46,669 nt of DNA, from contig CANRDK010000001.1 of the NCBI GenBank assembly GCA_947629345.1, forward strand, positions 1-46,669, in the 5' to 3' direction. The stretch is from an uncultured Clostridia bacterium. Its GTDB lineage: Bacteria > Bacillota > Clostridia > Christensenellales > Borkfalkiaceae. The notes under the pieces were generated by a model. That model ran no database searches and was not told the origin of the DNA. It saw nothing but the letters and a program-made list of their open reading frames with translations. Of the stretch, positions 5,207 to 46,669 are shown one piece after another (the stretch's first letter is position 1; each line of letters opens with the position of its first letter). Position numbers and translations under genes: made by a program.

Positions 5207-5733
5207 TTTAAAAATACCTCCAATGCTTTTTTCATGAATGCCATGCCGATCACAAAGCCGTTGAACACGGTGGCTGTTTCAAAGGAAAACTTCAGGCACG
5301 CCTTATCGGAGAGAAGTGTGTTGTTTTCCAGAGATAAAAAGGGATGCTTTGTTCTCAGATAGGCAAACGTTCCCCCTCCCACGGACTGCAGCAGCGTAGC
5401 GATGAAGATCCCATAGAGGCTCTCCGCGCCTCCCGTTTCCACCGTCTGGTGCAGTCTCCAGAGCTGAAATCCCTTTGTGATCTCAAATTTTTTCCGCGTG
5501 TCCCCCATCTTGTTATAGGGAACAAAGACGGCCTTTTTCTCCGTGAGATGCACGGCGATCCCCTCTCGGTCGAGCTGGCCGTAGCCGCCGAAGAGCTTCA
5601 GATGGCGGTACAGGGAGAGGGAAAACCATGCGCGATTTTTTGGGATATCCACATAGGAATCCAGCCACAAAAATATGGGAAAGAATGTGAGAAGGGATCC
5701 CGTAAATGTGGACCATACAAAAAATTCGCCCAT
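5152..5733 (-). CDS. DUF2953/YtfI-like sporulation membrane protein
   Basis: 193 aa, hydrophobic N-terminus, immediately upstream of ytfJ as in the Bacillus ytfI-ytfJ pair. Family call rests on position and general resemblance. Confidence 0.55.
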   Translation of the reverse strand: MGEFFVWSTFTGSLLTFFPIFLWLDSYVDIPKNRAWFSLSLYRHLKLFGGYGQLDREGIAVHLTEKKAVFVPYNKMGDTRKKFEITKGFQLWRLHQTVETGGAESLYGIFIATLLQSVGGGTFAYLRTKHPFLSLENNTLLSDKACLKFSFETATVFNGFVIGMAFMKKALEVFLNWIRKRKSTAFLKRQRSS

Positions 5734-8105: not shown

Positions 8106-9434
8106 TCACTTTTTCAAATATGCGGGGATGACGTCATACTGCACCAGATCTTCATACGTCTGAGGTCTTACGATGTACTGCGCTTTCCCCTCTTTCACGA
8201 GCACAGCGGGCGGAATGAGGTTGCGGTTGTAGTTGCTCGCCATGGAGTAGTTGTATGCCCCCGTCGAGAGCACGGCGACGAGGTCCCCCGTCTCAGCCTT
8301 GGGCAGATTCATGTTGATGCCGATGAGGTCGCCGCTTTCGCAGCATTTCCCCGCAAGAGAGATGAGTTCGGTGGGCCTTTCCGCCGCTCTGTTTGCAAGA
8401 ACGGCCGTGTACTTCGACTGGTAGAGGCAATAGCGGGGATTGTCGAACATGCCGCCGTCGATCGCAACATATTTCCTGAGGCCGGGGATATCCTTGATCG
8501 CGCCGACCGTGTAGAGCGTGATGCCCGCTTCGCCCACGATGGAGCGGCCGGGTTCGATGAGGATGCGGGGAAGCGCAAGCGCATACTTCTTGCACTGCTC
8601 TTTGACGGAGGAGATGAGCGCGGAGAGATATTCCCTGTACCCTCCCGAAGGGATCTTGCTGTCCTCATCGGTGTACCAGATGCCGAATCCACCGCCCAAA
8701 TTGACGGATTCGGGCTCAAAACCGTATTTTTTCTTGATTTCGGCGGCAAATTCCATGATTTTTTGGACTGCGATCACAAAGGACTGCTTCTCAAAGATCT
8801 GCGATCCGATATGGGAATGGTACCCGAGGAGACGGAGATGCTTCTTTTTGAGGAGATAGGCGACCATCTCCTCTGCAGTGCCGTTGTGGACGGAGAAGCC
8901 GAATTTGCTGTCTGGCGTCGCCGTCTGCACATAGGCGTGCGTATGCGCCTCCACCCCGGGGTTGATGCGGAGGAGTACATTCTGCACCATGCCCCGCTTT
9001 TCCGCCTCGGCGTCGAGAAGGTCCGCTTCCGTTGCAGAATCCACAACAAAACAGCCGATCTTGCAGTCCAAGGCATAGCGGATCTCGCTCGGCAGCTTGT
9101 TATTGCCATGAAAATAGATCTTTTCGGCGGGGAATCCCGCTTTCATCGCCGTAAAGAGCTCCCCGCCCGAAACGACGTCCGCCCCGAGCCCCTCCGAATC
9201 GGCAATGACATACATTGCTTCACAGGAAAAGGCCTTGGAGGCATAGAGCACGAGCCCGTTTCCGCCGTATTCTTCGGCGATCGTATCGCGATAGACGCGC
9301 ATCATGGAGCGGATATAGGCCTCATCGAACACATAGAGCGGCGTCCCGAAATTTTTTGCAAGTTCTACGCAGTCTGCCCCGCCGATCTCGAGATGGCCCT
9401 GTTTGTTTACCTTTAAAGTTTCTCTTTCGTTCAT
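8106..9434 (-). CDS. lysA: diaminopimelate decarboxylase
   Basis: 442 aa, PLP-dependent group IV decarboxylase (YASKAF, HSHIGSQI, GGGFGI, CESGD motifs). Confidence 0.95.
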   Translation of the reverse strand: MNERETLKVNKQGHLEIGGADCVELAKNFGTPLYVFDEAYIRSMMRVYRDTIAEEYGGNGLVLYASKAFSCEAMYVIADSEGLGADVVSGGELFTAMKAGFPAEKIYFHGNNKLPSEIRYALDCKIGCFVVDSATEADLLDAEAEKRGMVQNVLLRINPGVEAHTHAYVQTATPDSKFGFSVHNGTAEEMVAYLLKKKHLRLLGYHSHIGSQIFEKQSFVIAVQKIMEFAAEIKKKYGFEPESVNLGGGFGIWYTDEDSKIPSGGYREYLSALISSVKEQCKKYALALPRILIEPGRSIVGEAGITLYTVGAIKDIPGLRKYVAIDGGMFDNPRYCLYQSKYTAVLANRAAERPTELISLAGKCCESGDLIGINMNLPKAETGDLVAVLSTGAYNYSMASNYNRNLIPPAVLVKEGKAQYIVRPQTYEDLVQYDVIPAYLKK

Positions 9435-9451: not shown

Positions 9452-9480
9452 ATTATAGCACATGGGTGAATTTTTTTCAA
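9452..9480 (-). promoter_or_regulatory. sigma-A-type promoter for lysA
   Basis: Minus strand: TTGAAA, 17-nt spacer, TATAAT. A short leader with GGTGA precedes the ATG. Confidence 0.5.
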
Positions 9481-9481
9481 G

Positions 9482-9519
9482 AAAAAAAGGCACAATGGAA
9501 AGATTTTTCCAATTATGCC
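9482..9519 (-). terminator. rho-independent terminator after the DD-carboxypeptidase gene
   Basis: Minus strand: GGCATAATTGGAAA-loop-TTTCCATTGTGCC followed by T7. The 5' arm overlaps repeat copy 1. Confidence 0.6.
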
Positions 9520-9545
9520 TGACATAGTACTATGCAAAACCGTCA
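9512..9545. repeat. nested-palindrome element, copy 1 (intergenic, abutting the DD-carboxypeptidase stop codon)
   Basis: ATTATGCCTGACATAGTACTATGCAAAACCGTCA. Perfect 12-bp palindrome CATAGTACTATG at 9523-9534. Confidence 0.9.
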
Positions 9546-10703
9546 ATTCCAATTTTTCGCCGTCTCTTTGAAGGCATCCCACCAGCTATACGCAGGCGCA
9601 TCCTCCATGGAAACGAGCTTGACGCGGCCGATCTCCACGCCGTCGCGGTACAACACCGCCTCTCCCGCTTCATCCCCCTTCATGACGGGAGCCTTTAATC
9701 CGTGAAGGGAAATTTCCACATTGAGGTCCTTGCTCTCCCCCTTCTTTCCGAATGCGGAAAGGGACCTCTCGGCACACACCCCGATCTCCTTTACCTTGCT
9801 TCCGCTCACGGAAGATCTGTTTTCGATCTGTTCCCCCGCTTTCAAAACAATATGATTTTCGTAGCCGCCGAACGCTTCATCAAACAGTGAGGAGACGATC
9901 GCATTTCTGCTCTTGGAATTCTCCGCGCCGATGACGACGCTGATGATCCGCATTTCTCCCCGCTTCGCCGTTGCGGCAAGGCAGGAACCCGCCTCGTTCG
10001 TGAATCCCGTCTTTCCGCCGTCACAGCCCTGATAGAAGCGTATCAGTTTGTTTGTGTTGGTCATCTGCGTCGTCCTGCCGTCGGGATGCTGAAAATCTTC
10101 CATCCAAACCTTGGTGAGCTCAAAGTATTTTTCATGCTTTAAAAGTTCCTTGAGCATGACGGCGACATCCTTCGCGCAGGAATATTGCGGTTCCTTGGGG
10201 AGGCCTGTACAGTTTGCGAACAGGGTGTTTTCTGCGCCGAGTTCCCTTGCGCGGGCATTCATTTTATCGATAAAGGCGCTTTCGCTCCCCGCGACCCGCT
10301 CTGCGATGGCCACGCAGGAGTCGTTTGCCGAGCAAACTGCGATGGATTTGATGAGCTGTTCCGCAGGATAGCTGAGCCCCGCGTCCAAAAAGACCTGCGA
10401 TCCCCCCATTCCCGCGGCATTTTCGCTCACGGTGATCATCTCGTCGTAGGCAAGTTCCCCGCTCTCCACCGCCTCAAAGGATAGAAGCAGGGTCATGATC
10501 TTACACATGCTCGCGATCGGCAGCCGCTTTGTCTCCTCCATGGCGTAAATTTCGGTGCCCGTTTCATAGTCGCAGGAATATGCCGCCTTGCATCTCGGCG
10601 CCGTCTCAAGCGCAGAAACCTGCACACTGTTTCCCATCATCAATGTTGCCGCAAGCAGAGCGGCCGTACAGATCAATTTTTTCATATCCTCAGTTTGTAA
10701 CAT
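9543..10703 (-). CDS. D-alanyl-D-alanine carboxypeptidase (S11, PBP5 type with C-terminal domain)
   Basis: 386 aa. SxxK (ASMCKIMT) and SxN (CSANDS) motifs. Signal peptide from MKKLICTAALLAAT, so an alternative start at 10685 is possible. Confidence 0.85.
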   Translation of the reverse strand: MLQTEDMKKLICTAALLAATLMMGNSVQVSALETAPRCKAAYSCDYETGTEIYAMEETKRLPIASMCKIMTLLLSFEAVESGELAYDEMITVSENAAGMGGSQVFLDAGLSYPAEQLIKSIAVCSANDSCVAIAERVAGSESAFIDKMNARARELGAENTLFANCTGLPKEPQYSCAKDVAVMLKELLKHEKYFELTKVWMEDFQHPDGRTTQMTNTNKLIRFYQGCDGGKTGFTNEAGSCLAATAKRGEMRIISVVIGAENSKSRNAIVSSLFDEAFGGYENHIVLKAGEQIENRSSVSGSKVKEIGVCAERSLSAFGKKGESKDLNVEISLHGLKAPVMKGDEAGEAVLYRDGVEIGRVKLVSMEDAPAYSWWDAFKETAKNWN

Positions 10704-11353: not shown

Positions 11354-11415
11354 TCAAGTTTTCAGCATATTCTTCCGATGCCGTATCCCCTCGTCGAGTC
11401 GTTCAGGAAGACATG
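11354..11415. repeat. decayed duplicate of the spoIVB 3' end (direct repeat A flanking the TA cassette)
   Basis: 56 of 62 hand-aligned positions are identical to 12169-12234, plus one 4-nt indel. The minus strand would read HVFLNDSTRGYGIGRIC*, against native THVFLNDPTRGYGIGIENMLKN*. Confidence 0.85.
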
Positions 11416-11424
11416 AGAAAAGTA

Positions 11425-11751
11425 TTAAGTTTTAATACTCCGCAGGACGCGCTTGTAGTCGCGCTTTGCGTTGAACGCCGCTTTCACATGGACGGTATCG
11501 CTTCCCGCTTCAAACGTGTAGAAAATCAAATACTCTTTATGTACGAGAAAACGGTACCCTTGGCAGACAAGATTTCTGTCATCGGGAATCGCCCCTGCCT
11601 GCGGGAAATCGGCAAGGCGGGCCACTTCCGCCCTCAATTCTGCGACGAATTTCAAAGCGGTCTCGGCGTCCTTCGATACATCGAGAATATCCAGCGCGAT
11701 CTTCTTAAGATCCGCGATCGCGGTCTCTGTCATCAGTACTTTGCAGCGCAT
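11425..11751 (-). CDS. type II toxin, ParE/RelE superfamily
   Basis: 108 aa. ...AIADLKKIALDI... and GYRFLVHKEYLIFYTFE... are typical of the ParE/RelE fold. Starts 3 nt after the antitoxin stop. Confidence 0.8.
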   Translation of the reverse strand: MRCKVLMTETAIADLKKIALDILDVSKDAETALKFVAELRAEVARLADFPQAGAIPDDRNLVCQGYRFLVHKEYLIFYTFEAGSDTVHVKAAFNAKRDYKRVLRSIKT

Positions 11752-11754
11752 AGT

Positions 11755-12042
11755 TTACTCCGAGAGCGTCTTGACGATCTCATCGAACGCTGCGTCGATC
11801 GGCTTCACCCTGCCGAGCATCACGTCATCCTCCGACTGCGCCAGATGGGCATAGAGTTCAAGCCGCTCCTTCATTTCTTCCAGCGCAGCCTGTTGCGCAA
11901 GGTAGTCCTCATGGCTCATGAGAACGGTATCCTCCCTCCCGTTGACGGTGATCGCAACGGGATTCTGCCGCGTCAGAGCAGAGATCTGCCCGTAGTTGGT
12001 GCGAAGATCTTTGGATGGACGAATGGAAATTCCGACAGCCAT
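11755..12042 (-). CDS. type II antitoxin, Phd/YefM family
   Basis: ORF trimmed to ATG 12042, which follows GGGAGG. ...LRTNYGQISALTRQNPVAITVNGREDTVLMSHEDY... is the Phd/YefM N-terminal fold. Confidence 0.8.
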   Translation of the reverse strand: MAVGISIRPSKDLRTNYGQISALTRQNPVAITVNGREDTVLMSHEDYLAQQAALEEMKERLELYAHLAQSEDDVMLGRVKPIDAAFDEIVKTLSE

Positions 12043-12069
12043 CACATTACCTCCCTGTTCAGTAGTCAT

Positions 12070-12098
12070 ATTGTATCATAATTTGTCTACAATGTCAA
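12070..12098 (-). promoter_or_regulatory. sigma-A-type promoter of the TA operon with an internal inverted repeat (possible operator)
   Basis: Minus strand: TTGACA, 17-nt spacer, TACAAT. ATTGTA directly after the -35 is the inverted repeat of the -10 TACAAT. Confidence 0.55.
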
Positions 12099-12168: not shown

Positions 12169-12234
12169 TCAGTTTTTCAGCATATTCTCAATTCCTATGC
12201 CGTATCCCCTCGTCGGATCGTTCAGGAATACATG
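12169..12234. repeat. functional spoIVB 3' end (direct repeat B flanking the TA cassette)
   Basis: Partner of 11354-11415. See the finding on the TA cassette. Confidence 0.85.
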
Positions 12235-16284: not shown

Positions 16285-17055
16285 TCAAGCGTTGCGGTCG
16301 AAATCGGCACAACGGCCCAAAAATTCGGCCAAAGAGAGGGAGTTTCCGCCTTCTTCCAAAAAAATGACATACTCAACGTTCTTTTTGGGGCGGATGGGCG
16401 CGTTGACGGCGTCCACAACGGCAAATCCAAGCCCGCCGGCAAAGCCGTAAAATTCCGTCAGCAGTTTTTTGTGGAGGTGCACGGGAAGGATCCCGCTCTT
16501 GCCGAGCCCCTTTCCATCGCATTCAAACTGCGGTTTGAAGAGAACAAATGCCCTTCCGCCTTCTTCAAGGATCTCATGGACTGCGGGGAGAACAAGGCGG
16601 AGCGAGATAAAGCTGAGATCGGCCGTAACAACGTCGATATTCTCGGGAAAATCGGCGCGGGAAAGATAGCGGGCGTTGGTTTCATCCATGACGACGACGC
16701 GCGGATCGCTAATGAGAAAACTGTCGAGCTGGCTCTTCCCCACGTCCACGCAGTAGACTTTTTTTGCGCCCCGTTTCAAAAGGCAATCGCAAAAGCCACC
16801 GTTGCTCGATCCCAAATCTGCCGCCACGACACCCTCGACGCTCACACGAAAGCAGGAAAGCCCCCGCTCAAGCTTAAAACCTCCGTTCGAGACAAAGGAA
16901 AGCTCCTCGGAGAGGAATTCAAACGCCTCATCCCCGCTCACTTCCTCCTTGGGGGAAACGGGCACGCCGCGGCACAAAACAAGCCCCCGCAAAAGCGCCT
17001 GCTGCGCCTTGGTGCGGGAGCCGAATTTTTCTGCAAAAAACTTATCTGCGCGCAT
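16285..17055 (-). CDS. tlyA: TlyA family rRNA (cytidine-2'-O)-methyltransferase
   Basis: 256 aa. S4-like N-terminus (MRADKFFAEKFGSRTKAQQALL) and FtsJ-type SAM domain (DLGSSNGGFCDCLL). Confidence 0.9.
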   Translation of the reverse strand: MRADKFFAEKFGSRTKAQQALLRGLVLCRGVPVSPKEEVSGDEAFEFLSEELSFVSNGGFKLERGLSCFRVSVEGVVAADLGSSNGGFCDCLLKRGAKKVYCVDVGKSQLDSFLISDPRVVVMDETNARYLSRADFPENIDVVTADLSFISLRLVLPAVHEILEEGGRAFVLFKPQFECDGKGLGKSGILPVHLHKKLLTEFYGFAGGLGFAVVDAVNAPIRPKKNVEYVIFLEEGGNSLSLAEFLGRCADFDRNA

Positions 17056-18748
17056 ATTTCAGGATCTCTCCGACGATTTTTTCCCTTCCGAGCCCATATT
17101 TCTCCATGAGAGACGGAACTTCGCCGTGCGGCAGGAAACAGTCCTCATAGCCAAAACTCAGAACGATTTTCCCGCTGTTGCGGTAAAAATCCAGAATGGC
17201 GGAGCCCAACCCGCCGATTTTGGCGTTGTCCTCGAGCGTGACAACGATTTTTTCACTGCGGGAATTCAAAAGCGCCTCATCGAGCGGCTTCAAAAAGCGT
17301 GCATTCACGATATTGCAGTCAAGTCCTTCCTTGTGCAGTTCCTCCCTTACAAGTTCTGCAAGCGTGATGCATCTCTCCCCCGCTGCCATGATTACTATGT
17401 CAGACATAGTACTATGTAAAACCTCAAATTTCCCAATTTCGACGGAGCTGCATTCCCCCTCTTCCCCCGCACGCGGATAGCGAATAGCGAGCGGGTGGGC
17501 ATATTCCGTGCTGAGGCGGAGCATTTGGCGGAATTCTGCGATATTTTTCGGGATCGCGATCGCAAGATTCGGAATAAAGGAGAGATAGGAAAGATCGAAA
17601 ACGCCCTGATGGGTCTCTCCGTCCGCCCCCGTCGCCCCTGCTCTGTCGATACAGAAGGTCACGGGAAGGTCCTGCCCGCAGACGTCGTGAATGATCTCGT
17701 CGAATGCCCTCTGCAAGAACGTGGAATAGATCGCATAGTATGGCTTTAATCCCTGCGTCCCGAGGGAGGCCGCAAGCACGGAGGCATGCTCTTCGCAGAT
17801 CCCCACGTCGAAGGAACGTTCGGGGAACCTTTCAAAGAAGGGCCGAAGCCCCAAACTGTCCGTCATGGCAGCCGTGATCGCGACGATTTTTTCGTCTTTT
17901 TCGGCCAAAGCGCTCAGCTCTTCGCCGAGTGCGGCGGAATATTCCTTCTGCTCCGACTTTGGCCCCACGCCGTGCGTCTGCATGGGTGCGTTCTCGCAAA
18001 ACGGATATCCCCGCCCCTTCTGCGTGACGACGTGCAGGAGCACCGTCTCCTCTCTCACCGCCTCCTTTGCCTGCTCGAGGGCGGGAAGGAGCTCTTCAAT
18101 GCAATTCCCGTTGACGGGTCCCATGTAGCGGAGGCCGAACCGCTCGAACAGGGCGACATCCTCCATCGGCTTGCCGCTCTGCCGCAGTTCCTCCAACACC
18201 TCATGTGCCCCGCCGACTGTCGGCGAGATGGACATGCCGTTGTCATTCAAAATGATCAGGACTTTCGTATGTAAGATCTTCAGGCTGTTCAATGCCTCAT
18301 AGATGAGCCCGTTCTGAAAGGAGCCGTCGCCGATGAGCGCGATCACATGAAAATCTTCCCCGTTGAGGTCGCGTGCCTTGCCGATGCCGAGCGCCGCGGA
18401 GAGAGCAGTCCCCGCATGGCCGGTGTCGTAGCAGTCGTAGACGCTCTCTTCCCGCTTCGGAAAGCCCGAAATGCCGCCCTCTTTCCGCAATGTGTGGAAT
18501 TTCTCCGCACGGCCTGAGAGCAACTTGTGCGTATAGCACTGATGGCCGACATCAAAGATGAGCTTATCCTTGGGAAAGTCAAAGACGCGGTGAAGGGCAA
18601 CCGTGAGCTCCACGGCGCCCAAATTGGAGGAAAGGTGTCCTCCGCAGACCGAAACGGTTTGATAGATCGTACTCCTGAGTTCCTCGCAGAGCACGTTCAA
18701 TTGCGCAACGGAGGCATTTTTCAGCTCCCTGCTCTTAAAATTATTCAT
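17042..18748 (-). CDS. dxs: 1-deoxy-D-xylulose-5-phosphate synthase
   Basis: 568 aa. GGHLSSNLGAVELTVALH, GHAGTALSAALG and IGDGSFQNG (ThDP) motifs, with a transketolase-like C-terminus. Confidence 0.95.
   Translation of the reverse strand: MNNFKSRELKNASVAQLNVLCEELRSTIYQTVSVCGGHLSSNLGAVELTVALHRVFDFPKDKLIFDVGHQCYTHKLLSGRAEKFHTLRKEGGISGFPKREESVYDCYDTGHAGTALSAALGIGKARDLNGEDFHVIALIGDGSFQNGLIYEALNSLKILHTKVLIILNDNGMSISPTVGGAHEVLEELRQSGKPMEDVALFERFGLRYMGPVNGNCIEELLPALEQAKEAVREETVLLHVVTQKGRGYPFCENAPMQTHGVGPKSEQKEYSAALGEELSALAEKDEKIVAITAAMTDSLGLRPFFERFPERSFDVGICEEHASVLAASLGTQGLKPYYAIYSTFLQRAFDEIIHDVCGQDLPVTFCIDRAGATGADGETHQGVFDLSYLSFIPNLAIAIPKNIAEFRQMLRLSTEYAHPLAIRYPRAGEEGECSSVEIGKFEVLHSTMSDIVIMAAGERCITLAELVREELHKEGLDCNIVNARFLKPLDEALLNSRSEKIVVTLEDNAKIGGLGSAILDFYRNSGKIVLSFGYEDCFLPHGEVPSLMEKYGLGREKIVGEILKYARR
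17391..17426. repeat. nested-palindrome element, copy 2 (in-frame inside dxs)
   Basis: ATTACTATGTCAGACATAGTACTATGTAAAACCTCA. Palindrome at 17405-17416. The minus-strand sense encodes EVLHSTMSDIVI. Confidence 0.9.
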
Positions 18749-22202: not shown

Positions 22203-22657
22203 CCTTCCTCGACCTCCACATCGCAGCCGTACCGTTCCAATAGCCGCTCTCTTGCCGCAGACATTATATCTATATGACTTTCTTCCCCGTTTATTCCGAA
22301 ATTGGTGACCCTCACAACGATTTTTTGATAGGAAAAATCGTCGGAAGAACGCGAAACGATGACAAACGACTCAACGCCGTACTCCTCCGTCATCCATGCG
22401 GAGATCTCCGCTTCGTCTGCCTCAGAGAGCTTCATGGCGTATTTCCTCAAAAAGACATCGTCCTCCCTCATCTCAGCGCTCGGAAAGAATGTTTCGGGCT
22501 CCTTTGCGAAGCGGACAAAGGGTGAAATGAGAACGACAAAGATAAAGAGACGGGAGATGGACTTCACAAACTTCCCCATCTTGCCGCTCGGGGCGATGAT
22601 GGAAATGACGGCGGAGATCAAAACGACGCCCGCAACACTCAGCACATACCCCTTCAT
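22199..22657 (-). CDS. spoIIIAF: stage III sporulation protein AF
   Basis: ORF trimmed to the ATG overlapping the spoIIIAE stop (TGATG). Two N-terminal TM segments. Position in the operon. Confidence 0.75.
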   Translation of the reverse strand: MKGYVLSVAGVVLISAVISIIAPSGKMGKFVKSISRLFIFVVLISPFVRFAKEPETFFPSAEMREDDVFLRKYAMKLSEADEAEISAWMTEEYGVESFVIVSRSSDDFSYQKIVVRVTNFGINGEESHIDIMSAARERLLERYGCDVEVEEG

Positions 22658-23862
22658 CAGAAAAACACCCCCGACGAACAAACCAACAGCAAGATCGAAA
22701 GAAAGTACAGAAAGGCGATACAGAGCAGCCCTGCGAGGAAAAAGCTACAGTCCCCCGCAAGACGGGACAAAAATGCAGAGATCTTGCCCCCGACGGGCTC
22801 CGTCGCCGCCGCGGCCATCCGCAAAAAGAGCTGAAAGACCACAAACAAGAGGACAGGGCGGAGGATGGTCCCGAAGAGCAGAAAGACCGCAAAGGAACCG
22901 AGCGCATTCTTGATAAGAGAGCTCCCGGCAACGACGAGTTCTACCCCGCCTGACAGAAATCCGCCGACGAGAGGCACGGACCCCGAAAGGACATATTTCG
23001 CCGCCTTGAGGGAGATCCCGTCGTACTGCGCCGCGGCGATCCCCTGTACCGTCAAAAAGACAGAAAAGAGCCCCAAAGTTAGTCCTATCAGCCACTTGTT
23101 GACGCTCTTAAAGAGCTCACCGAGCTTTTCGGTACGCACTTCCTCCGAGAGATTTCCCACAAAGGCGAGAACAATGACGACGACGGAGGTCGGTAGGATG
23201 ACGGAGGTGAAGAGTTCGCAGATCCCCCCGCTCATGAATGCCACGGCGGGACGGAAGATCCCCACCGAGACTGCGCCCCCGCTTGCCGCCATGAGGGTTA
23301 GAAGGAGCGGATACACGAGCTCCATCTGCCGCTGCATGGAGGAAATTGCCGAAAAGCCCGCATCGAGCACCGAAATGAGGCATGCAAGCACCGCGGCTCC
23401 CACGGAAAGATAGCCCACGAAATGTATTATGTCTGACATAGTACTATGCAAAAGCTCACTTTTCGCAGAATTGAGGATGCCACAGAGGAGGGTCACAGCC
23501 AAAATGATCGCAAATGCGGGGAGCATGATCTTCCCCTCGTCCCAGATGAGAGATAAGACTGCGCTTGTAAGGGAGCTGTAATCGAGATCGAGATCCCCCG
23601 TGATGACGCCGAGAAGTTTATCTTTGACTGAGAGCCCGCGGAAGGACGAAAGAGTATCGAGATAGTTTTGCAGCTCCTCCGTATCGAGCGCGCCAATGAG
23701 ATCCTTGATATTCTCATTGAGAAGATCGGAAGCGGCCTGTTCCCCCTCCGATTTGCCGCTTGCGCTTGCCTTTATCCCCACCCCGAGGCTCAGCAAAAAA
23801 AGAAACAGCAGACCCAAGGCAAGGATAAGGACCCTTTTCCGTCCCCGTTTCCGCCCCATCAT
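22657..23862 (-). CDS. spoIIIAE: stage III sporulation protein AE
   Basis: ORF trimmed to the ATG overlapping the spoIIIAD stop. Signal-like N-terminus and a polytopic membrane protein (...LLTLMAASGGAVS...) as in SpoIIIAE. Confidence 0.85.
   Translation of the reverse strand: MMGRKRGRKRVLILALGLLFLFLLSLGVGIKASASGKSEGEQAASDLLNENIKDLIGALDTEELQNYLDTLSSFRGLSVKDKLLGVITGDLDLDYSSLTSAVLSLIWDEGKIMLPAFAIILAVTLLCGILNSAKSELLHSTMSDIIHFVGYLSVGAAVLACLISVLDAGFSAISSMQRQMELVYPLLLTLMAASGGAVSVGIFRPAVAFMSGGICELFTSVILPTSVVVIVLAFVGNLSEEVRTEKLGELFKSVNKWLIGLTLGLFSVFLTVQGIAAAQYDGISLKAAKYVLSGSVPLVGGFLSGGVELVVAGSSLIKNALGSFAVFLLFGTILRPVLLFVVFQLFLRMAAAATEPVGGKISAFLSRLAGDCSFFLAGLLCIAFLYFLSILLLVCSSGVFF
23425..23458. repeat. 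nested-palindrome element, copy 3 (in-frame inside spoIIIAE)
   Basis: TATTATGTCTGACATAGTACTATGCAAAAGCTCA. Palindrome at 23437-23448. The minus-strand sense encodes ELLHSTMSDII. Confidence 0.9.
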
Positions 23863-24254
23863 CCGATATACCCCAAAAGTTGTTTGATGAGCGTCAATAC
23901 GCTCTCCAAAATGGGGATCGCAAGCACCAAAATGAGAACTTTTCCGCAAAAGATGAGCTTGTCCGCCACGGAATTTTGCCCAAAGTCATTCAGGATCCCC
24001 GCACTGAATTCCACGAGATAGCCGATCCCCACCATTTTCAGCAATATTTTGATGAGGGAGGAATTCAGCCCCGCCTCGTCGGCAATGTCGCCGAAGATCG
24101 CAACCGTCCCCTTGAGCATTTCAAACACAAAGAGCAGCAGAATGATAGAACCCGCCACCGTCACGGCAAAGGCGAGTTCGGGCTTCGTCCCCTTCAGGAT
24201 CAGTGCGGCGACAGCCGTTACAAATGCGATCCCGACAAGCTGGAATATCTGCAT
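23859..24254 (-). CDS. spoIIIAD: stage III sporulation protein AD
   Basis: ORF trimmed to ATG 24254 (MQIFQLVGIAFVTAVAALILK...). Small polytopic membrane protein. Operon position. Confidence 0.85.
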   Translation of the reverse strand: MQIFQLVGIAFVTAVAALILKGTKPELAFAVTVAGSIILLLFVFEMLKGTVAIFGDIADEAGLNSSLIKILLKMVGIGYLVEFSAGILNDFGQNSVADKLIFCGKVLILVLAIPILESVLTLIKQLLGYIG

Positions 24255-25809: not shown

Positions 25810-28413
25810 TTATTCGATGACGAACACGCTCACGCTGTTTTTCTTGATGAGAGCCTTAAGTTTGTTGTTCTCAATGGCAATTTCGCTCTCGGCGGGGGCA
25901 ATGTTGTCCTTTTTGCCCGCCTTCACATTGATCTCATTGATGACGGTGACGTCCTCATCCCAGAGCGTCGTGACATGCGCCTTAGTTTTCTCGCCGAAGT
26001 TCTTGAGCTCCGCGCAGAGTTCCTCGTCCTCTTCGGAGACGTTGACGACTTTGAGGTAAATTTTTCCGTCGTTCCCCACCGTCGCCGATTGGAACACGCG
26101 CTCGTTCACCTTCCAGATATTCTTGTCGAGCACTTCATGCCATTCATCATCCTTATAGATATAGGCAGTGAATCTCTTTGTTGTATAAACAAGTCTTAAG
26201 ATATTGCCCTCGGGGGAATAGCCGAGGAATTTATCCTTGCCCATCATCTCGCAGACGGTGCGCATGAAGTCCACGCGTTTATCGAAGGAGACGTCGTAGC
26301 CCTTGTGGTTCTTGCCGTATTGGCAACAGATGGAGAAGCCTGCGCTGTCCATGGTGCCGATATCTCTGACGTCGTCGAGCCCGACGCCGCCGATAAAGCT
26401 CTGCTCACCCGAAAGACGGCGGAAGGAGATATCTACTTCACAGTTGCTGAACTTTTGGGCATCGTAGTAGAAGCCGTTGAACGCCTCGCTCTCCTCGATG
26501 ATGAGCTCACCGTTTTCGATATGTCCGCCGCAGCAGTTGGGATAGACCTTCCAATCCCCCATGCCGTCCTTAAAATCGTGTTCGTAGAGCACTTTTTTCG
26601 TGGCGATATCTCTGACGAGGACCTTGGAAACTGCGCTTGCCGTGCGGTGTCCGCCGATGAGAAGACCGCCCGCATTGTCGTCATTGACAGCTGAAACGTC
26701 CGTCAGGGTGTAGTTGCCTACATTCCCCGCAAACATCTGTTGGACATAGTAGTTGGGTGTGAGCATGACGTCACGGGCGTTGAACCAGATCATGTTCGGT
26801 GTCCAGCGGTAGTGATAGGTGGAGGCAAAGAGCGGCGCATAGCAGGTCATCTTGACGACGTCGGAATTTCTCTCACATCCCGTCAAAAAGGCCGCTTCCG
26901 AGAGGGCAGATTTGAGATTGTTGTCGCCGTTGAGCCTTCCCCTGCCGTCAGACATCGTGTGCATGGCATATTCGCCCATAAAGACCTTTGCACCCTCTCT
27001 GTCGTAGCAGTCGTACCGCTTGGTATTGTCGATAAACCATTGGTAGGAATTGTAGACGTGCTCGTCTACGATCATGCCGCGGTACTTCTCGTTGATGACT
27101 TTCCATGAGTCGTTGCTGTCCTGCGGACGGATATCCACGCCCGCACTCGTCACAACGGTGATATTGAAGAGCTTTAAAAGGTCGGTGAGCCTGCCCTTGT
27201 ACATGTACTGCCTTACGCCGAGCAGACAGGAGGCAAAGTTGTCGAAGTACTCATATCCCCAATTCTCGTTGCCGATGCCGATATAGTCGAGCTCAAAGGG
27301 AGCGGGGTGCCCCATATCCGAGCGGACTTTCGCCCAATATGCCTCGTTTTTGTCGCTCGAGGAGATGTCTCCCTTGGCAAAGTAGATGAGATCTGCCACA
27401 TTGTCGATGACTTCGCTCTGGAACTGTTTCGTCCCGGGAACGATGCGCTGATAGCCTGTCTTGCGCTGTTCCCCCATGCGGATCTGGCAGAGAAGCCCGC
27501 AGTGGAGCACGGGAAGAGGCGCCATTTTGAGGTCCTCGCAGAGGCAGAAATATTCATAGAATCCGATGCCGTAGGACTGCATGTAACGCCACACGCTCGG
27601 CTTCTGGCGTCGCTGTTCGAGCGGGCCGACCGTCTCTCTCCACTTATATTGATAGTCGAACGCGACATCCCCCTCGACGACACAGCCGCCGGGGAAGCGC
27701 AAAAAGGAGGGATGACAATTCTTCATCGCCTCGACGATGCGGGGGGAAAGTTTCCCGTATTTGTACTTCTTTTGGTCCCCCCATACGCTGGCGGGCAGGA
27801 GGGAAACATAGTCGATGCCGATCTTGCCGTTGCCCTCAAGCGTGATGCAGAGCCGCCCCATCGTGTCCTTTTCGGCAACGACGGAACAGCCGACCTTGAT
27901 CCAATCTCCGTCTGTTCCCTCGGGGATCTTGATTTCGCCGACCGACGTGTGTCTGCCGTGGGCTCCCTTGATGAACACCTTGCAGGTTCCCTTGAAGCCC
28001 AGCCGCTTCACCCACATGGAGAAGTGATAGGTCTCCCCGTTCACCACGGGCATGCCGTAGATGTCGTATCCGCCGTTGGTGTAGTACCCGGGATTCTCCA
28101 AATGATAGATGCCCCCGACCTCGAGGAGCAGATAGGAGGGATTGTTCTCGTTCATGCCCCCCTTTGTTGTGATCTTTCTGGGCCCTGCGCCGTAGATATC
28201 CCAATAGAAAGCGTTCTCCTTGCGGGCCTCGACACGGGCGGTGCAGTTGTAATCGTCATATGTAAAGTACTCGTATTCAAAGGAGTTGTTGATGACCATT
28301 TCGGCATTCAGTCCCCCGTCTGCCGATTGGTTGATATCCTCGAAAAAGAGCCCATAGAGATGTTTTGATACGTCAACACCCCTCTTTTTTGCGTCGAGCG
28401 TGTAATGCAGCAT
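25810..28413 (-). CDS. alpha-L-arabinofuranosidase (GH51-like catalytic core with N- and C-terminal carbohydrate-binding/beta-sandwich extensions)
   Basis: ORF trimmed to ATG 28413 after GGAGAA. HLYGLFFEDINQSADGGLNAEMV..., FLRFPGGC and IGIGNENWG (acid/base Glu region) are typical of GH51. Confidence 0.8.
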   Translation of the reverse strand: MLHYTLDAKKRGVDVSKHLYGLFFEDINQSADGGLNAEMVINNSFEYEYFTYDDYNCTARVEARKENAFYWDIYGAGPRKITTKGGMNENNPSYLLLEVGGIYHLENPGYYTNGGYDIYGMPVVNGETYHFSMWVKRLGFKGTCKVFIKGAHGRHTSVGEIKIPEGTDGDWIKVGCSVVAEKDTMGRLCITLEGNGKIGIDYVSLLPASVWGDQKKYKYGKLSPRIVEAMKNCHPSFLRFPGGCVVEGDVAFDYQYKWRETVGPLEQRRQKPSVWRYMQSYGIGFYEYFCLCEDLKMAPLPVLHCGLLCQIRMGEQRKTGYQRIVPGTKQFQSEVIDNVADLIYFAKGDISSSDKNEAYWAKVRSDMGHPAPFELDYIGIGNENWGYEYFDNFASCLLGVRQYMYKGRLTDLLKLFNITVVTSAGVDIRPQDSNDSWKVINEKYRGMIVDEHVYNSYQWFIDNTKRYDCYDREGAKVFMGEYAMHTMSDGRGRLNGDNNLKSALSEAAFLTGCERNSDVVKMTCYAPLFASTYHYRWTPNMIWFNARDVMLTPNYYVQQMFAGNVGNYTLTDVSAVNDDNAGGLLIGGHRTASAVSKVLVRDIATKKVLYEHDFKDGMGDWKVYPNCCGGHIENGELIIEESEAFNGFYYDAQKFSNCEVDISFRRLSGEQSFIGGVGLDDVRDIGTMDSAGFSICCQYGKNHKGYDVSFDKRVDFMRTVCEMMGKDKFLGYSPEGNILRLVYTTKRFTAYIYKDDEWHEVLDKNIWKVNERVFQSATVGNDGKIYLKVVNVSEEDEELCAELKNFGEKTKAHVTTLWDEDVTVINEINVKAGKKDNIAPAESEIAIENNKLKALIKKNSVSVFVIE

Positions 28414-28468
28414 AGTTTCTCCTTCGGACAGTCCCCCCTTATTCGGACCGCCATATTTTACTATCCGT

Positions 28469-28497
28469 ATTATACCATTGAACTTGGAGTTCGTCAA
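28469..28497 (-). promoter_or_regulatory. sigma-A-type promoter of the arabinofuranosidase gene
   Basis: Minus strand: TTGACG, 17 nt, TGgTATAAT. Confidence 0.55.
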
Positions 28498-28563
28498 TAT
28501 TTTGGGCAAATATTTTATCAAAAAATAAAATATTTCATTTTTATGTGAAGAATGAAAATTGCT

Positions 28564-28587
28564 AACAAAAAAAGGGCACCGCCCTTT
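28564..28587 (-). terminator. rho-independent terminator after the Fic gene
   Basis: Minus strand: AAAGGGC-GGT-GCCCTTT followed by a T-run. Confidence 0.65.
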
Positions 28588-28605
28588 CCTTGATGAAAAC
28601 TGTTT

Positions 28606-29457
28606 TTATTCTTCCTCGTAATAATAGGAATAGTCGATGCCCTTCATGAATAATTCGCGGTCGTCGATTTGGTCGGTCAAGGCGCTTTCGATGAGATTGA
28701 AAATGTCCGACGCATCGACGGGGCTTTTTTGCATGGCGTTGAGATAGGAACGCTTGTCGATTTTGCTCCAATCGACGCACTTTTTCAAGTTTTTCTTCAA
28801 AATGAGGTCGAGCCAGATACGCGTACTGCGCCCGTTTCCCTCCATGAACGGGTGCGCGATATTCATTTCAACGTATTTTTTAACGATTTCGTCGAGTGTG
28901 TTTTCGGGCATTTTCTCAATGAGAGCGAGATTTTCTTTCAGGTACATCGAGGGCGCAAACGCAAATCCGCCTTTGGCAATATTCAAACCTCGGATCTGTC
29001 CGGCAAAATCGAACAGCCCGCCGAAAATGTAGCCGTGGATCTGCTGCAATCCTTTTACCGTGCCGACCTCGATCTCACCGATCATGCCGCTCTCGAACAG
29101 TTCATACGCTTTTTGTTTGCTCTTTTCGTCGATTGTACTGCCCATACCCGAGAGCCAGCGGACGAAACTTTCACGGTTTTTCGCGGGGATGAGCGCAACG
29201 ACCACATTGACACCGCTTGCGTCGACCATGTCGGTGAGATATGATTTTCCGTCCCGCGCCGTAAGTTTCAGTTGTTTACAAATTGTAATCAACTGCAGAT
29301 TGCGCCGCTTCATCTGCGCCCAATAAACACGCGGATTCTTGCTCTTCGTGAGCGCCTCGGCGATATCGACGGCGCAAAACCACCATTTGGGATCTTCGTC
29401 ATCCCAAACAGCTCGCACCGGTATATCTTCAAAAAATCTGATAGAAGTTTTGATCAT
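28606..29457 (-). CDS. Fic/DOC family protein with N-terminal Bro-N/RhuM-like domain
   Basis: 283 aa. Canonical Fic motif [13 protein letters not shown]-terminus [31 protein letters not shown] resembles Bro-N/RhuM DNA-binding modules. Confidence 0.85.
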
Positions 29458-30684: not shown

Positions 30685-32025
30685 TCACTCTGCCGACACA
30701 TAGGACAAAACAAAGGTATCTTTACTCATTCCGCAATACTTGACTTCGTCCGTTTCGGGGATATATTCAAAGATGAAAGCGGGAGAATAGATCGGAAAGG
30801 AGTAGACCTTTTCGAGCGGACGGTATACGGTCAAAAATAATCTTTCGCAGTCTACATTCCAGAGCCTCAAGGCAAATTCCCACTCTTCCTTATAATACTC
30901 CTCATAGATCTCCTTGAGATGCACAAAGGCCGAATTCTTTGCAAGCAATTCTCCGTCGATCGTCCTCTTTTCCCCTGTTGAAACTTCGGTCAAGGTCAGT
31001 GTGCATAAATTGAATTCCGGGGCGTTATATCCCGATTCCTGCTCGAGAGTTTCCTCAATCGCATACGTCTTGTTGCCTATTTTATATTCGGGTATGACGG
31101 TCGGCTCGTTTTCCTCGTTTTCCGCATTTTGAACGGCTTCATCGTAGCGTTTCTGTAAGTCCTCTTCGGGCAACTTTTCACCCGTTTTCATATCGACGGC
31201 GAAGACCACCTCCCCCACGATCCGTTCTGAATCTTTGACGAATATCGTGTCTCCATATCTTTTTGCGCTTGCTTTCTCCGTGATCGCGGGGTCGCTGAAG
31301 CTTACTTTTTCGTATTCACCGTCGCCGTAAACATAATAATCGAGGATCCCCTCGTCAATAAAGGCATAATCACGGCCGTCGAAATGAGCGTTTGCGCCAT
31401 TTTCCGTGCGGGCGTACTTTACGGGATCCGAATACACTTCCGTTGAATACACGGTCTCCCCATTTTCTGCGTCCACAAGTTCGAGCAGCCCGTTGTACGT
31501 CAATGCGATATACCGTTCGTCGATGAATCCGTGCGTCACGGGCAAATGCGCAACGTCGTAAAGGTTGAAAGGAATAATGTCTTTGATGTCCTTCAGGAGC
31601 GTCAGCGTTCCCTCGCGCGCATCGGCCTTGAAAATCCCCACGTCAACGCGGTGAGCATTTTCGACCAAACGGTCATTTTCTCTGATATCATCCCCGCGAT
31701 GTGCATACTGGTGCGAAAAAATCATACCGTCCTTTGTGTATCGGCTCCATTCATAGTAGGTATCCTGAAATTCGCCGAACTCACAGTCCACAAGCTTTTT
31801 TTCTTTTGTCTTGAAGTCGAGATATGTTCCGTCTACGGTCATGCCATCTTTTGAAACAAAGTTCACACCGTTGACCTCTATCGGCACCTTCAAGGCTTCC
31901 GACTTTGCCGTATCATACTCTGCACTTGCATAACCGCAGCCCGCAAGGCAGAGCAGAAAACAGAATACGGTCAAAACCGCCGTCACAAATTTTTTCATCA
32001 CAGACTTAATATTTACAGTACCCAT
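30685..32025 (-). CDS. hypothetical lipoprotein (446 aa)
   Basis: ORF trimmed to ATG 32025 after AAGGGAGGG. Signal peptide with lipobox LAGC. No family recognised. Confidence 0.65.
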   Translation of the reverse strand: MGTVNIKSVMKKFVTAVLTVFCFLLCLAGCGYASAEYDTAKSEALKVPIEVNGVNFVSKDGMTVDGTYLDFKTKEKKLVDCEFGEFQDTYYEWSRYTKDGMIFSHQYAHRGDDIRENDRLVENAHRVDVGIFKADAREGTLTLLKDIKDIIPFNLYDVAHLPVTHGFIDERYIALTYNGLLELVDAENGETVYSTEVYSDPVKYARTENGANAHFDGRDYAFIDEGILDYYVYGDGEYEKVSFSDPAITEKASAKRYGDTIFVKDSERIVGEVVFAVDMKTGEKLPEEDLQKRYDEAVQNAENEENEPTVIPEYKIGNKTYAIEETLEQESGYNAPEFNLCTLTLTEVSTGEKRTIDGELLAKNSAFVHLKEIYEEYYKEEWEFALRLWNVDCERLFLTVYRPLEKVYSFPIYSPAFIFEYIPETDEVKYCGMSKDTFVLSYVSAE

Positions 32026-32706: not shown

Positions 32707-32825
32707 ATTTTCATTATACTATAAAATAACACGAAAATCAAGCGAGGCAGGTATCTCCGCAAAAGATTTCATGATAACGGACCGCCGACGGGGCACAATG
32801 CCCGGTCGGCGGTTTTTCTATGTAG
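32693..32825. repeat. intergenic terminator-plus-promoter module, copy X
   Basis: Homologous to 34167-34289 and includes the identical 25-mer ACACGAAAATCAAGCGAGGCAGGTA. Contains a GC-rich hairpin (32781-32812), -35 TTGATT and -10 TATAAT on the minus strand. Confidence 0.8.
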
Positions 32826-32827
32826 CT

Positions 32828-33727
32828 TTATTGTACCATATCTTGAACAAGGCAGTATTTCCATGTGCAAATATATCTTCTGCCGCCGAACTCCGCGTAG
32901 TCCGACATATATTGCTCGCGGCAGACCTCTTCTAATGCTCCCTCAGATAAGAGGCGATATACCGCCTCGTTGGTAATCACAAACAATCCCCTTTCACTTT
33001 TTCGTGTACGGATCAAATACTCCCGCCCGCAAAACGTTTTACGAAACTGCGAAATGATCGGCACTCCTTCGGTAATGTCCGACAATTCCAAAGTTCTCTC
33101 GTACGACGTGAGAAGCTTTTCCTTCAAAATGAGATCATCGCTCTCTTTTTCGAACCGCCCATAGCAACAATCGTAAAAAGTCGGCAAGCCGCCCTTCGAC
33201 GCGCCCCAAGCACAGCAGTTGCGGATGATATAATAGCCGTCCTTTGCGTGCCTCACGAAGCAATAGCGCGTATACGGTGCTTTATCGCTTTTCTTTTCAC
33301 GGTCGAACTTTAACTGCGGGAGAGGGATCGCGGAATATTGCAGCTTGTCGGGATAGATCTCCGCAAAACCGTATCCCACACCGCCGTCGCTCCGACCGCA
33401 GGTATAGATTCCGTAAGCGGCGTTCTCCTCTTCGCCGTAGTAGAAGTCCTCATCGGTGTTATGGCAACCTCTTATTTTCAATTTGCCGAGAAAAGAAAGA
33501 GTGTCCGCGGTGTAAAAGGCAAACCTGCCGTCGGTCGACTGAACCAAAACGAGGTTGTTCTTATGCGAAACATATACATAGGTGGGGTAACTTATATCGT
33601 TGAGCCGTGCAATTTTTTCGTTCGTCTTTAAGTCGTACACCCACACCGAGCCGCCTATGATAAAAAAGCGCGAGAAAAGTTCGTCTATCACGATTTCGTA
33701 TGCACGACCGTTTATTATATAGTTCAT
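32828..33727 (-). CDS. hypothetical protein (299 aa)
   Basis: Clean ORF, Cys/Tyr-rich, no recognised family. Confidence 0.5.
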   Translation of the reverse strand: MNYIINGRAYEIVIDELFSRFFIIGGSVWVYDLKTNEKIARLNDISYPTYVYVSHKNNLVLVQSTDGRFAFYTADTLSFLGKLKIRGCHNTDEDFYYGEEENAAYGIYTCGRSDGGVGYGFAEIYPDKLQYSAIPLPQLKFDREKKSDKAPYTRYCFVRHAKDGYYIIRNCCAWGASKGGLPTFYDCCYGRFEKESDDLILKEKLLTSYERTLELSDITEGVPIISQFRKTFCGREYLIRTRKSERGLFVITNEAVYRLLSEGALEEVCREQYMSDYAEFGGRRYICTWKYCLVQDMVQ

Positions 33728-34166: not shown

Positions 34167-34289
34167 ATCTTGTATGTCTTTTTTTATTATACCATAAACT
34201 CACACGAAAATCAAGCGAGGCAGGTAGCGCCCCAAAGATTTCATTATAAAGCCCGCCGAGGGAGAATTCCATCGGCGGGCGGTTCTATA
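34167..34289. repeat. intergenic terminator-plus-promoter module, copy Y
   Basis: Homologous to 32693-32825. Minus strand has -35 TTGATT (34214-34209), 17 nt, then TGgTATAAT (34191-34186). Confidence 0.8.
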
Positions 34290-36771: not shown

Positions 36772-36911
36772 AATAAACTTCTCCAGCAAAATACTGTTTG
36801 TTGTTTCAATTATACCATAAACACAGGACAAATGCAAGTAGGCAGAAATCGTAAATAAAAAAATCCGACCCATTCACTCGTTACGAGGATTCGGTTCGGA
36901 TTTACTTGAGC

Positions 36912-36995
36912 TGGTGCGGTCGACAGGAGTTGAACCTGCATGGTCATCCCACAAGATCCTTAGTCTTGCGCGTCTGCCAATTCCGCCACGACCGC
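36912..36995 (-). tRNA. tRNA-Leu, anticodon AAG (class II, long variable arm, encoded CCA)
   Basis: Hand fold. Acceptor GCGGTCG/CGACCGC, 3-bp D stem, anticodon stem CAAGA/TCTTG with loop CTAAGGA, T loop TTCAACT, 3' CCA. Confidence 0.8.
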
Positions 36996-40852: not shown

Positions 40853-40940
40853 GCCGGTGTGGTGGAATTGGCAGACGCGCTGGACTCAAAATCCTGTGGA
40901 CTAATCATCCGTATCGGTTCGACCCCGATCACCGGCACCA
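40853..40940 (+). tRNA. tRNA-Leu, anticodon CAA (class II, encoded CCA)
   Basis: Hand fold. Acceptor GCCGGTG/CACCGGC, anticodon loop CTCAAAA, T loop TTCGACC, 3' CCA. Confidence 0.85.
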
Positions 40941-46639: not shown

Positions 46640-46669
46640 CTTGAAGAGAACCTCCTGAGTCTGCCAATC

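Follow-up and report, generated by a model that had tools for sequence, protein, structure and literature searches.

The window analyzed here, a 46,669-nucleotide stretch of DNA from an uncultured Clostridia bacterium of the family Borkfalkiaceae (assembly GCA_947629345.1, contig CANRDK010000001.1, positions 1 to 46,669), carries three copies of a short DNA word, TTTT[G/A]CATAGTACTATGTC[A/T]G[A/G]CATA. All three are on the minus strand, two of them inside genes (dxs and spoIIIAE) and one in the spacer between a dacF-like gene and lysA. A 21-mer search allowing up to 3 mismatches returned exactly these three matches, all on the minus strand; the same search in 100 dinucleotide-preserving shuffles of the window returned 0.00 matches. 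Copy 1 (9511 to 9539, minus strand; TTTTG CATAGTACTATGTC A GGCATA ATT) begins 3 nucleotides past the TGA stop codon of the dacF-like D-Ala-D-Ala carboxypeptidase gene (9543 to 10703, minus strand), whose 3' end abuts it, and lies upstream of the diaminopimelate decarboxylase gene lysA (8106 to 9434, minus strand; TIGR01048, 448 bits). Copy 2 (17393 to 17421, minus strand; TTTTA CATAGTACTATGTC T GACATA GTA) is read as (V)LHSTMSDIV within dxs (17042 to 18748, minus strand; NCBIfam TIGR00204, 608 bits). Copy 3 (23425 to 23453, minus strand; TTTTG CATAGTACTATGTC A GACATA ATA) is read as LLHSTMSDII within spoIIIAE, which as the longest open reading frame (ORF) spans 22657 to 23949 on the minus strand and starts at 23862 according to a simple gene caller; its product scores 168 bits with NCBIfam TIGR02829, below the curated cut-off of that model (247.45 bits).

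An earlier note on this DNA, made from the sequence alone, had drawn attention to the likeness between the dxs and spoIIIAE copies. The match is real and had been located to within 1 to 2 bases: the dxs copy, GAGGTTTTACATAGTACTATGTCTGACATAGTA (window 17425 to 17393, minus strand), and the spoIIIAE copy, GAGCTTTTGCATAGTACTATGTCAGACATAATA (window 23457 to 23425, minus strand), are identical at 29/33 bases, and each reads (E)xLHSTMSDI in the frame of its host gene. The octapeptide LHSTMSDI is indeed present in both proteins. The identity of the frame, to which the note had also pointed, carries no independent information, because the word has only one open sense frame. The other two contain stop codons (TAG in one, TAA/TAG in the other), so that any sense copy within a gene must read LHSTMSDI. 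In the antisense direction, the sole open frame of the word reads MSDIVLCK, and it is used in the aroC gene of a high-GC genome (locus L050). The shared octapeptide is a by-product of a clade-specific chromosomal DNA element.

To collect the family, a species-representative genome collection was scanned with the pattern CATAGTACTATGTCNGNCAT, in which positions 14 and 16 were left free. Exact cores were found in at least 117 stretches from at least 61 species-level genomes. All of the matches listed belong to Christensenellales-type Clostridia, except for two chance ones (one Bacteroidales, one Bathyarchaeota), and the carriers among them include Borkfalkia, Gallimonas, metagenome-assembled genomes (MAGs) labelled Christensenella, and many MAGs from rabbit and other guts. 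The consensus is TTTTG CATAGTACTATGTC W GACATA ATA (W, A or T), and it contains two overlapping palindromes. P1 is the 12-bp palindrome CATAGTACTATG (TTTTG-CATAGTACTATG), and P2 is a palindrome of 13 to 19 bp, TA-n-TATGTC-W-GACATA-n-TA; some sites (e.g., locus L071) are nearly perfect palindromes over 29 bp. Position 14 is A or T in 123/124 of the matches listed, though the pattern allowed any base there and TCG and TCC would encode Ser too, while position 16, also left free, is A in 90% of the matches listed. The AT-rich word is kept even in a genome of 67% GC (L050). There, two perfect cores lie 3.7 kb apart in a single shikimate operon, in opposite orientations, one in aroC (1986 to 2005), where the reverse frame reads MPDIVLCK, and the other in the aroE-aroQ spacer (5687 to 5706).

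The sites were seen in genome fragments of 8 to 22 kb. Their density is approximately 1 per 50 kb, or a few dozen per genome (3 in the 46.7-kb window and about 18 further copies in 0.88 Mb around the index sites), a rough estimate in which exact and degenerate copies were counted together. The exact core has 0 matches in IMG/VR, a phage blastn search gave chance matches only, and a relaxed 19-bp palindrome gave 15 single matches in AT-rich viral contigs that lack the flanking consensus and are at chance level; a phage or plasmid origin was rejected on these grounds. Full-text searches with the core, the 12-mer, 13-mers and 10-mers found no paper describing the core word, although zero matches were returned for the 13-mers only.

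Because these matches had been selected by the word itself, we also used a motif-unbiased set of 80 metagenome dxs loci fetched by protein similarity. The word (1 to 5 mismatches of 29) is present in 10/10 loci whose Dxs is at least 68% identical. Its copies in these loci occupy the three syntenic positions known from the window, those in spoIIIAE and dacF-lysA occurring in some of the loci only; the spoIIIAE site is present in 5/8 distinct in-clade dxs loci. It is absent from the 70 loci with Dxs of at most 61% identity, apart from one weak 3-mismatch match outside dxs (L141). At the protein level, nearly all of the 120 closest Dxs proteins (67 to 99% identity) have an LHSxxS(D/N)-type segment here. 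The peptide HSTMSD, for which the earlier note had proposed to check orthologs, is exact in 41/120. A few of the 120 proteins deviate more strongly, with variants such as VLQSNLSD, VLYSTMSN and LLHKADSN.

Synonymous codons were compared in eight distinct in-clade dxs orthologs from this set, which were not chosen for the motif. Synonymous-codon identity is 0.452 over the whole of dxs, 0.668 in the 9 core codons and 0.806 in the 7 codons upstream of the core, and it falls to 0.34 to 0.39 just outside. Several codons are essentially fixed (Ser AGT 8/8, Asp GAC 8/8, Ile ATA 7/7, Lys AAA 8/8, Phe TTT 7/8), and the only synonymous variation in the word occurs at the degenerate positions of the motif itself (TTA/TTG, TCA/TCT, ATA/ATT). 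The suggestion that selection acts on the nucleotides rather than on the peptide is therefore borne out by the conservation of synonymous sites in and upstream of the word relative to the flanking codons. Among the unbiased orthologs, P2 is nearly invariant and is the best-conserved part of the core. Positions 2, 7 and 9 of P1 vary independently, without compensatory covariation, which argues against selection for a hairpin.

The word did not enter these genes as an insertion. SpoIIIAE aligns without gaps to sister-clade relatives that lack the word (SFADQTSADVI versus ELLHSTMSDII), and in the motif-less sister clade Dxs has a longer, variable loop that likewise starts with LH. Since the length of SpoIIIAE is unchanged and the sister-clade loop is the longer one, the word must have been built by substitutions over existing codons, in agreement with the earlier proposal that a loop had been replaced rather than a large insertion added. 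A second proposal, short-patch copying (gene conversion) from dxs, is not supported. The flank likeness on which it was based (CGAAAAATTGGAATTGACGG versus CGAAATTGGGAAATTTGAGG) is the phased A/T-tract pattern common to all copies of the family (see below), and each site class has its own private variants that are kept across species, such as TTTTA...AGTA in dxs, GGCAT in dacF-lysA and TTAG in trkA-rsmB. At variable positions, copies of one site class share an identity of 0.70 and copies of different classes one of 0.53. Private variants of this kind indicate vertical inheritance and not homogenization.

The dacF-lysA variant has an evident cause. The intrinsic terminator of the dacF-like gene (9482 to 9520, minus strand) is a hairpin of -16.1 kcal/mol (z = -4.9) followed by U7, in which the right half of copy 1 serves as the 5' stem arm (AGGCAUAAU). 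G at position 16 pairs with the 3' arm of the hairpin, and because the right half of the word is the stem arm of the terminator, this G16 variant is private to the dacF-lysA site class, which is also found at loci L015, L087, L091 and L113. Our simple terminator scan missed this hairpin because of an internal mismatch.

The core is flanked by long arms that are conserved only as a pattern of A/T versus G/C and not as sequence. When 79 to 82 de-duplicated sites were aligned on the core, A/T content was found to oscillate with a period of 10.5 bp from about -90 to +85, phase-locked to the core. A/T peaks (0.6 to 0.99) are near -76, -65, -55, -44, -34, -22, -13 and -3 on the left and near +21, +30, +41, +51, +62, +72 and +83 on the right, with troughs of 0.25 to 0.4 between them, and the family-wide logo has proximal tracts at -23 to -20 and -15 to -10. 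Within each tract A precedes T (AnTn), an arrangement that is known to make DNA curve. At the 10.5-bp period, the left arm has a Fourier power of 0.69 and the right arm one of 0.52, compared with about 0.002 at random positions. For single sites, the median arm power is 1.15, versus 0.28 in motif-free intergenic regions (Mann-Whitney p = 3e-19), with little scatter in phase (R = 0.89). Left and right arms keep a common register to within about 1.2 bp and mirror each other about position 14.1, which is the centre of P2, and not about 5.5, the centre of P1.

The phasing extends into coding DNA. At 28 independent sites, the upstream gene ends no more than 30 nucleotides from the core, so the stretch from -95 to -31 is coding DNA of 28 different genes, and it is still phase-locked (R = 0.73, Rayleigh p ~4e-7), far above the 3-nucleotide codon signal. 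In the window, the proximal left arm of copy 2 (17422 to 17445, minus strand) is written in the dxs codons GTC GAA ATT GGG AAA TTT GAG G, with A/T tracts about 10 nucleotides apart and in phase with the core, and that of copy 3 (23454 to 23476, minus strand) in the spoIIIAE codons CAATTC TGC GAAAAG TGAGC. Taken together, the orthologs and the arms demonstrate that purifying selection acts strongly both on a word in duplex DNA and on the way its flanks are phased with the helix. From these sequence features we infer, with a probability of about 0.55, that the vertically inherited element is bound, on curved or wrapped DNA, by a dimeric protein with sequence specificity.

A dispersed palindromic repeat that is mostly extragenic, lies at gene 3' ends and is sometimes translated in frame could also be a selfish miniature mobile element, similar to repetitive extragenic palindromic (REP) sequences, miniature inverted-repeat transposable elements (MITEs) or the Rickettsia palindromic elements, or a set of gene-conversion patches. 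This explanation is largely refuted, and we consider it very improbable. The Rickettsia elements are likewise repeated DNA elements translated in frame in unrelated proteins, but they are insertions of 100 to 150 bp that lengthen the protein; here codons were overwritten and host protein length is unchanged, the added length of a MITE-like or Rickettsia-type insertion being absent from the gap-free SpoIIIAE and from the Dxs loop, which is shorter than that of the sister clade. REP sequences and bacterial interspersed mosaic elements (BIMEs) are strictly extragenic and occur in hundreds of copies, in contrast to the intragenic copies and the density of about 1 per 50 kb found here. Sites are orthologous across species whose Dxs proteins differ by at least 30%, their site-specific variants are inherited vertically, and the arms are kept as a pattern rather than as a copied sequence. 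We found no association with transposases and no phage copies; among the annotated neighbors of sites in the fragments there is no gene for a REP-associated tyrosine transposase (RAYT; IS200/IS605-like).

The closest documented precedent for phased arms on bacterial DNA is provided by the gyrase motif and the BIME-2 and phage Mu sites (PMC6379681, PMC12630141). The E. coli gyrase motif covers 130 bp, with a 36-bp centre, 47-bp arms and a phased 10-bp variation in G/C (PMC6379681), and in Streptococcus pneumoniae, a Firmicute, 79% of the cleavage sites are GxxC with symmetric phased arms (PMC12630141). BIME-2 and Mu sites consist of DNA with 10-bp phased bendability that is thought to wrap a protein (PMC6379681). 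The main rival of the dimer-site reading, possible though on balance unlikely, is that the sites are hard-wired strong sites for gyrase (a type II topoisomerase), the counterpart of BIME-2 and of the strong gyrase site of Mu. Cleavage would take place at the GTAC centre of P1, the arms would wrap around the GyrA C-terminal domains, and positive supercoils would be removed at the ends of transcription units. Several features fit: phased 10-bp G/C-A/T arms flank a centre as they do in the gyrase motif (PMC6379681, PMC12630141), the consensus centre of P1 is GTAC (a GxxC), and the sites, as in the E. coli BIME-2/REP and Mu cases, are dispersed at gene 3' ends, with convergent regions (21) favored over divergent ones (4). 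However, the motifs of gyrase show high degeneracy, in contrast to a core that hardly varies over 20 to 29 bp. In unbiased orthologs, the C of GTAC (position 7) is one of the most variable positions of the core (GTAA and GTAG occur). Conservation is highest in P2, where there is no GxxC, and it is P2 around which the arms are symmetric. The arms reach about ±90 bp, beyond the gyrase wrap of about ±65 bp. Unlike BIME-2 and the Mu site, the element is one nearly invariant 29-bp word that also occurs inside genes and whose positions are conserved in at least 61 species. It has no REP architecture and no RAYT gene among the annotated neighbors, its arms are longer, and its symmetry centre is away from GxxC.

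The placement of the sites was determined with a simple codon-usage gene caller trained on the loci and a simple terminator finder; both are crude, and the counts are approximate. Before de-duplication, 49 copies lie between co-oriented genes in the same direction as the genes and 5 in the opposite direction, 24 are in convergent and 5 in divergent regions, and 29 are within genes in the sense and 2 in the antisense orientation. De-duplication left 37 tandem co-directional, 4 anti-directional, 21 convergent and 4 divergent intergenic sites. Clustering of the flanking proteins gave more than 45 syntenic site classes common to species. Intragenic classes were found in dxs, spoIIIAE, miaA, murB, mutL and aroC; intergenic ones include thyA-folA, ytxC-thrS, trkA-rsmB, gpsA-x, glpK-glmM, adhE/rplI, ylmC/dnaD-like, dacF-lysA, aroE-aroQ and the region from fabG to dgt-dnaG, and further sites lie near leuS, recG and rimM. 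In MutL, the word falls in the linker region (the L063 product, …EKSGDLHSTTRDIDRKNYDE…, and an exact core called within mutL at L047); this class has the word in one genome and a decayed LHSTTRDI in another, an instance of turnover at a coding site. The neighboring genes are general housekeeping genes without a common function, and a sporulation regulon was rejected for this reason.

The location of the core with respect to terminators varies. About half of the intergenic sites have a terminator upstream of the core, its U-tract often doubling as a tract of the left arm, and about one-fifth have one downstream. P2 boxes are sometimes clustered at spacings of whole helical turns (21, 32, 43 and 53 bp), and off-turn spacings (23, 25, 30, 33, 39 and 86 bp) occur too. 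The densest array of the element seen consists of five P2-type boxes (TATGTC-W-GACATA, some imperfect) spaced by 25, 21, 39 and 23 bp, between a fabG-like gene and a dgt-like/dnaG operon (L008, 7388 to 7520; L022, 5596 to 5730; L017). This cluster is possibly a nucleation or regulatory region.

An array upstream of the dgt-dnaG operon, a palindromic core that resembles GntR- or TetR-type operators, and some copies located right before a ribosome-binding site and start codon would suit an operator bound by a global transcription factor or by a repressor that acts as a roadblock. We regard this explanation as improbable, because divergent, promoter-only regions are avoided (4/73) and the sites lie instead at gene ends, in convergent regions (21/73) or within genes that share no function, and because the operators of one regulon are normally far more degenerate. 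At copy 1, moreover, the sigma-70-type promoter of lysA (9452 to 9480, minus strand; TTGAAA, 17 nucleotides, TG-n-TATAAT; 11/12 matches) is a separate element downstream of the word. Two promoter readings of the word itself were rejected as well. As a sigma-G/F-like promoter (GCATA, CATAATA) it would have a spacer of 13 nucleotides, compared with 17 to 18 in the consensus, and as a housekeeping promoter (TTGCAT to CATAAT) a spacer of 14; the genomic placement is against any promoter.

The prevailing sense orientation, and the many copies that follow a stop codon and precede a terminator or the next cistron, are what would be expected of an RNA-level element (a stability, processing or binding site in mRNA). 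Such an element is very doubtful nonetheless: the folds of the three window copies are no stabler than those of shuffled sequences and differ from one another (z = -0.2, +0.3 and -1.8), P1 does not covary, and the tracts of the arms take A or T equally, which, like the W at the dyad centre, is a property of duplex DNA. Since terminators are often upstream of the core, many cores fall outside the upstream transcript; furthermore, an antisense coding copy exists (aroC of L050), and the only Rfam matches in the window are two tRNAs. An RNA-guided target (a PAM-like TTTTG followed by a protospacer) was also considered and rejected, because the core is palindromic and degenerate at its central position (W).

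Another reading is a polar signal for replication or segregation. It could be a Ter-like fork barrier in which two dimer sites overlap, or some other signal oriented with the leading strand. The Ter site of Bacillus subtilis, bound by the replication terminator protein (RTP) at overlapping A and B sites, is similar in architecture: a site of about 30 bp with two overlapping imperfect palindromes, each for one dimer, that is asymmetric as a whole, as our core is. In addition, 90% of the copies are on the strand with positive GC skew, and 9/13 copies in gene-opposed neighborhoods keep positive skew on the motif strand. Yet GC skew is confounded with gene strand, and some sites are almost perfectly symmetric (L071). 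The two aro copies of L050 point in opposite directions, as do copies within the adhE/rplI convergent region, and sites lie beside genes of all kinds with no sign of terminus or origin restriction in the 8- to 22-kb fragments. Unlike Ter, the element is not visibly confined to one region, has a much higher copy number and no sequence relationship to it. A polar signal is thus quite improbable.

The element also recalls DNA uptake sequences accumulated through biased transformation. In the Haemophilus uptake signal sequence (USS) and the Neisseria DNA uptake sequence (DUS), a DNA word is likewise imposed on coding sequence in preferred, fixed reading frames, giving recurrent peptides, and USS has a core followed by helically phased AT tracts and copies in terminators. 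USS and DUS occur about once per kb, however, some 50 times more often than our word, of which the 46.7-kb window holds 3 copies; positions of the word are syntenic across species, and its much longer arms span 8 helical turns on both sides. We know of no link of the element to competence, and this origin appears exceedingly improbable.

Similar in general character are the low-copy chromosomal sites bound by proteins, parS (ParB), NBS (Noc), SBS (SlmA), matS (MatP) and the RefZ motifs, which are also highly conserved palindromic words present in tens per genome, often in coding sequence and at conserved positions. The centre of P1, AGTACT, equals that of the SlmA site, GTGAGTACTCAC. The sequence is unrelated to parS and NBS, and the core bears no relation to the 16-bp parS palindrome TGTTNCACGTGAAACA. 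To our knowledge, neither phased A/T arms of about 180 bp nor a bias toward gene ends has been described for any of these sites. When the core was compared by hand with dif/Xer sites, Spo0A boxes, LexA boxes, parS, NBS and the B. subtilis Ter consensus, none matched convincingly. The element resembles several known kinds of dispersed chromosomal sites and matches none.

On the dimer-site reading, P2 and P1 would be recognized sequence-specifically by a dimeric protein or by two dimers, and the phased arms would let about 180 bp of flanking DNA curve or wrap in one plane around the protein or around an oligomer growing out from it, producing a fixed architectural point on the chromosome. The narrow minor grooves of the A/T tracts would face inward at ±5, ±16, ±26 bp and so on from the P2 dyad, which places the major groove inward at the dyad itself. 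Such a geometry is expected for proteins that bind on the concave side and contact successive major grooves, as in oligomerizing ribbon-helix-helix or partition-type complexes, and it would also fit an intrinsically curved segment that pins the apex of a supercoil.

Several observations weigh against the dimer-site explanation. No DNA-binding gene recurs among the genes adjoining the sites, and no candidate gene for a binding protein was found beside the clusters of P2 boxes. The sites turn over, those of spoIIIAE and dacF-lysA being missing or decayed in some in-clade genomes. The orientation bias (37 co-directional versus 4 anti-directional copies between tandem genes and about 6:1 in favor of sense in coding regions) is a difficulty because a purely symmetric architectural site would not need it. 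We attribute the bias to the T-rich left arm, which doubles as terminator U-tracts, and to a better tolerated sense peptide in the single open sense frame, but it may instead reflect a real polar function. Lastly, the three window copies are modest in arm periodicity (power 0.08 to 1.4, with the dxs copy lowest), and a sliding analysis of 10.5-bp periodicity does not single them out in the window. Because single window copies are weak, the evidence from the arms is statistical and can be demonstrated only across many sites.

The window has other features. In spoIVB, the final ~20 codons together with the stop region recur, with 86 to 91% identity, about 815 bp downstream (11354 to 11415 and 12169 to 12234, minus strand). 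Between the repeats lies a plus-strand ORF of 222 amino acids (11413 to 12081) for which neither Pfam nor NCBIfam gave a match; the arrangement suggests that an insertion into the spoIVB 3' end duplicated its target. No spo0A follows spoIVB in the window. An alpha-L-arabinofuranosidase gene and a Fic/Bro-N protein gene (25810 to 29457), directly upstream of the spoIIIA operon, interrupt an otherwise classical Firmicute gene order (spoIIIA ... ispA-dxs-tlyA ... recN-spoIVB). A stretch of low GC content (0.43 to 0.45, ~30 to 37 kb) has three copies of an AT-rich repeat of 35 to 56 nucleotides (32708 to 32763, 34181 to 34236 and 36804 to 36838; 74 to 89% identical), and three of its genes that were checked (30685 to 32025, 32828 to 33727 and 34698 to 35534) have no Pfam match; it may be an acquired island with repeated upstream regions. 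Two tRNA-Leu genes (36912 to 36995, minus strand, and 40853 to 40940, plus strand; anticodons AAG and CAA) flank polA (38204 to 40747). At 46374 to 46567, in the 5' part of a gene for an S1-domain protein (45095 to 46669, minus strand), at least five tandem 54-nucleotide (30 + 24) repeats with 62 to 90% identity presumably encode a repetitive Ala/Glu/Pro-rich linker.

By the rough density given above, each genome of the family holds a few dozen sites, mostly at the 3' ends of transcription units, that are passed on vertically and maintained by purifying selection. Where a site falls within a gene, selection overrides codon choice and even amino-acid choice. A noncoding function of the DNA dictates protein sequence in the unrelated Dxs, SpoIIIAE, MiaA, MurB and AroC (the last in the reverse frame), and dozens of different genes carry the arm phasing in the 3' ends of their coding sequences. 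We know of no bacterial chromosomal sequence-specific sites with such long, phase-locked, bendable arms. For annotators, the case implies that peptides common to unrelated proteins can stem from DNA signals instead of homology or domain transfer, and the word is a ready taxon-specific DNA marker. Our preferred guess for the cellular role is nucleoid or supercoil organization. More tentatively, the sites might be the fixed anchor points of a chromosome-organizing system new to science in this family of gut Clostridia, in which the 29-bp word would nucleate a dedicated, sequence-specific protein complex. Around this complex, which might be compared to a positioned "nucleosome" of bacteria or to a partition-type complex, about 180 bp of phase-optimized DNA would be wrapped at some 40 to 60 conserved boundaries between transcription units. 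If so, selection for these points would have had the strength to reshape loops in essential proteins. The element offers a precise, testable entry point to nucleoid or supercoil organization in an abundant and largely uncultured gut lineage.

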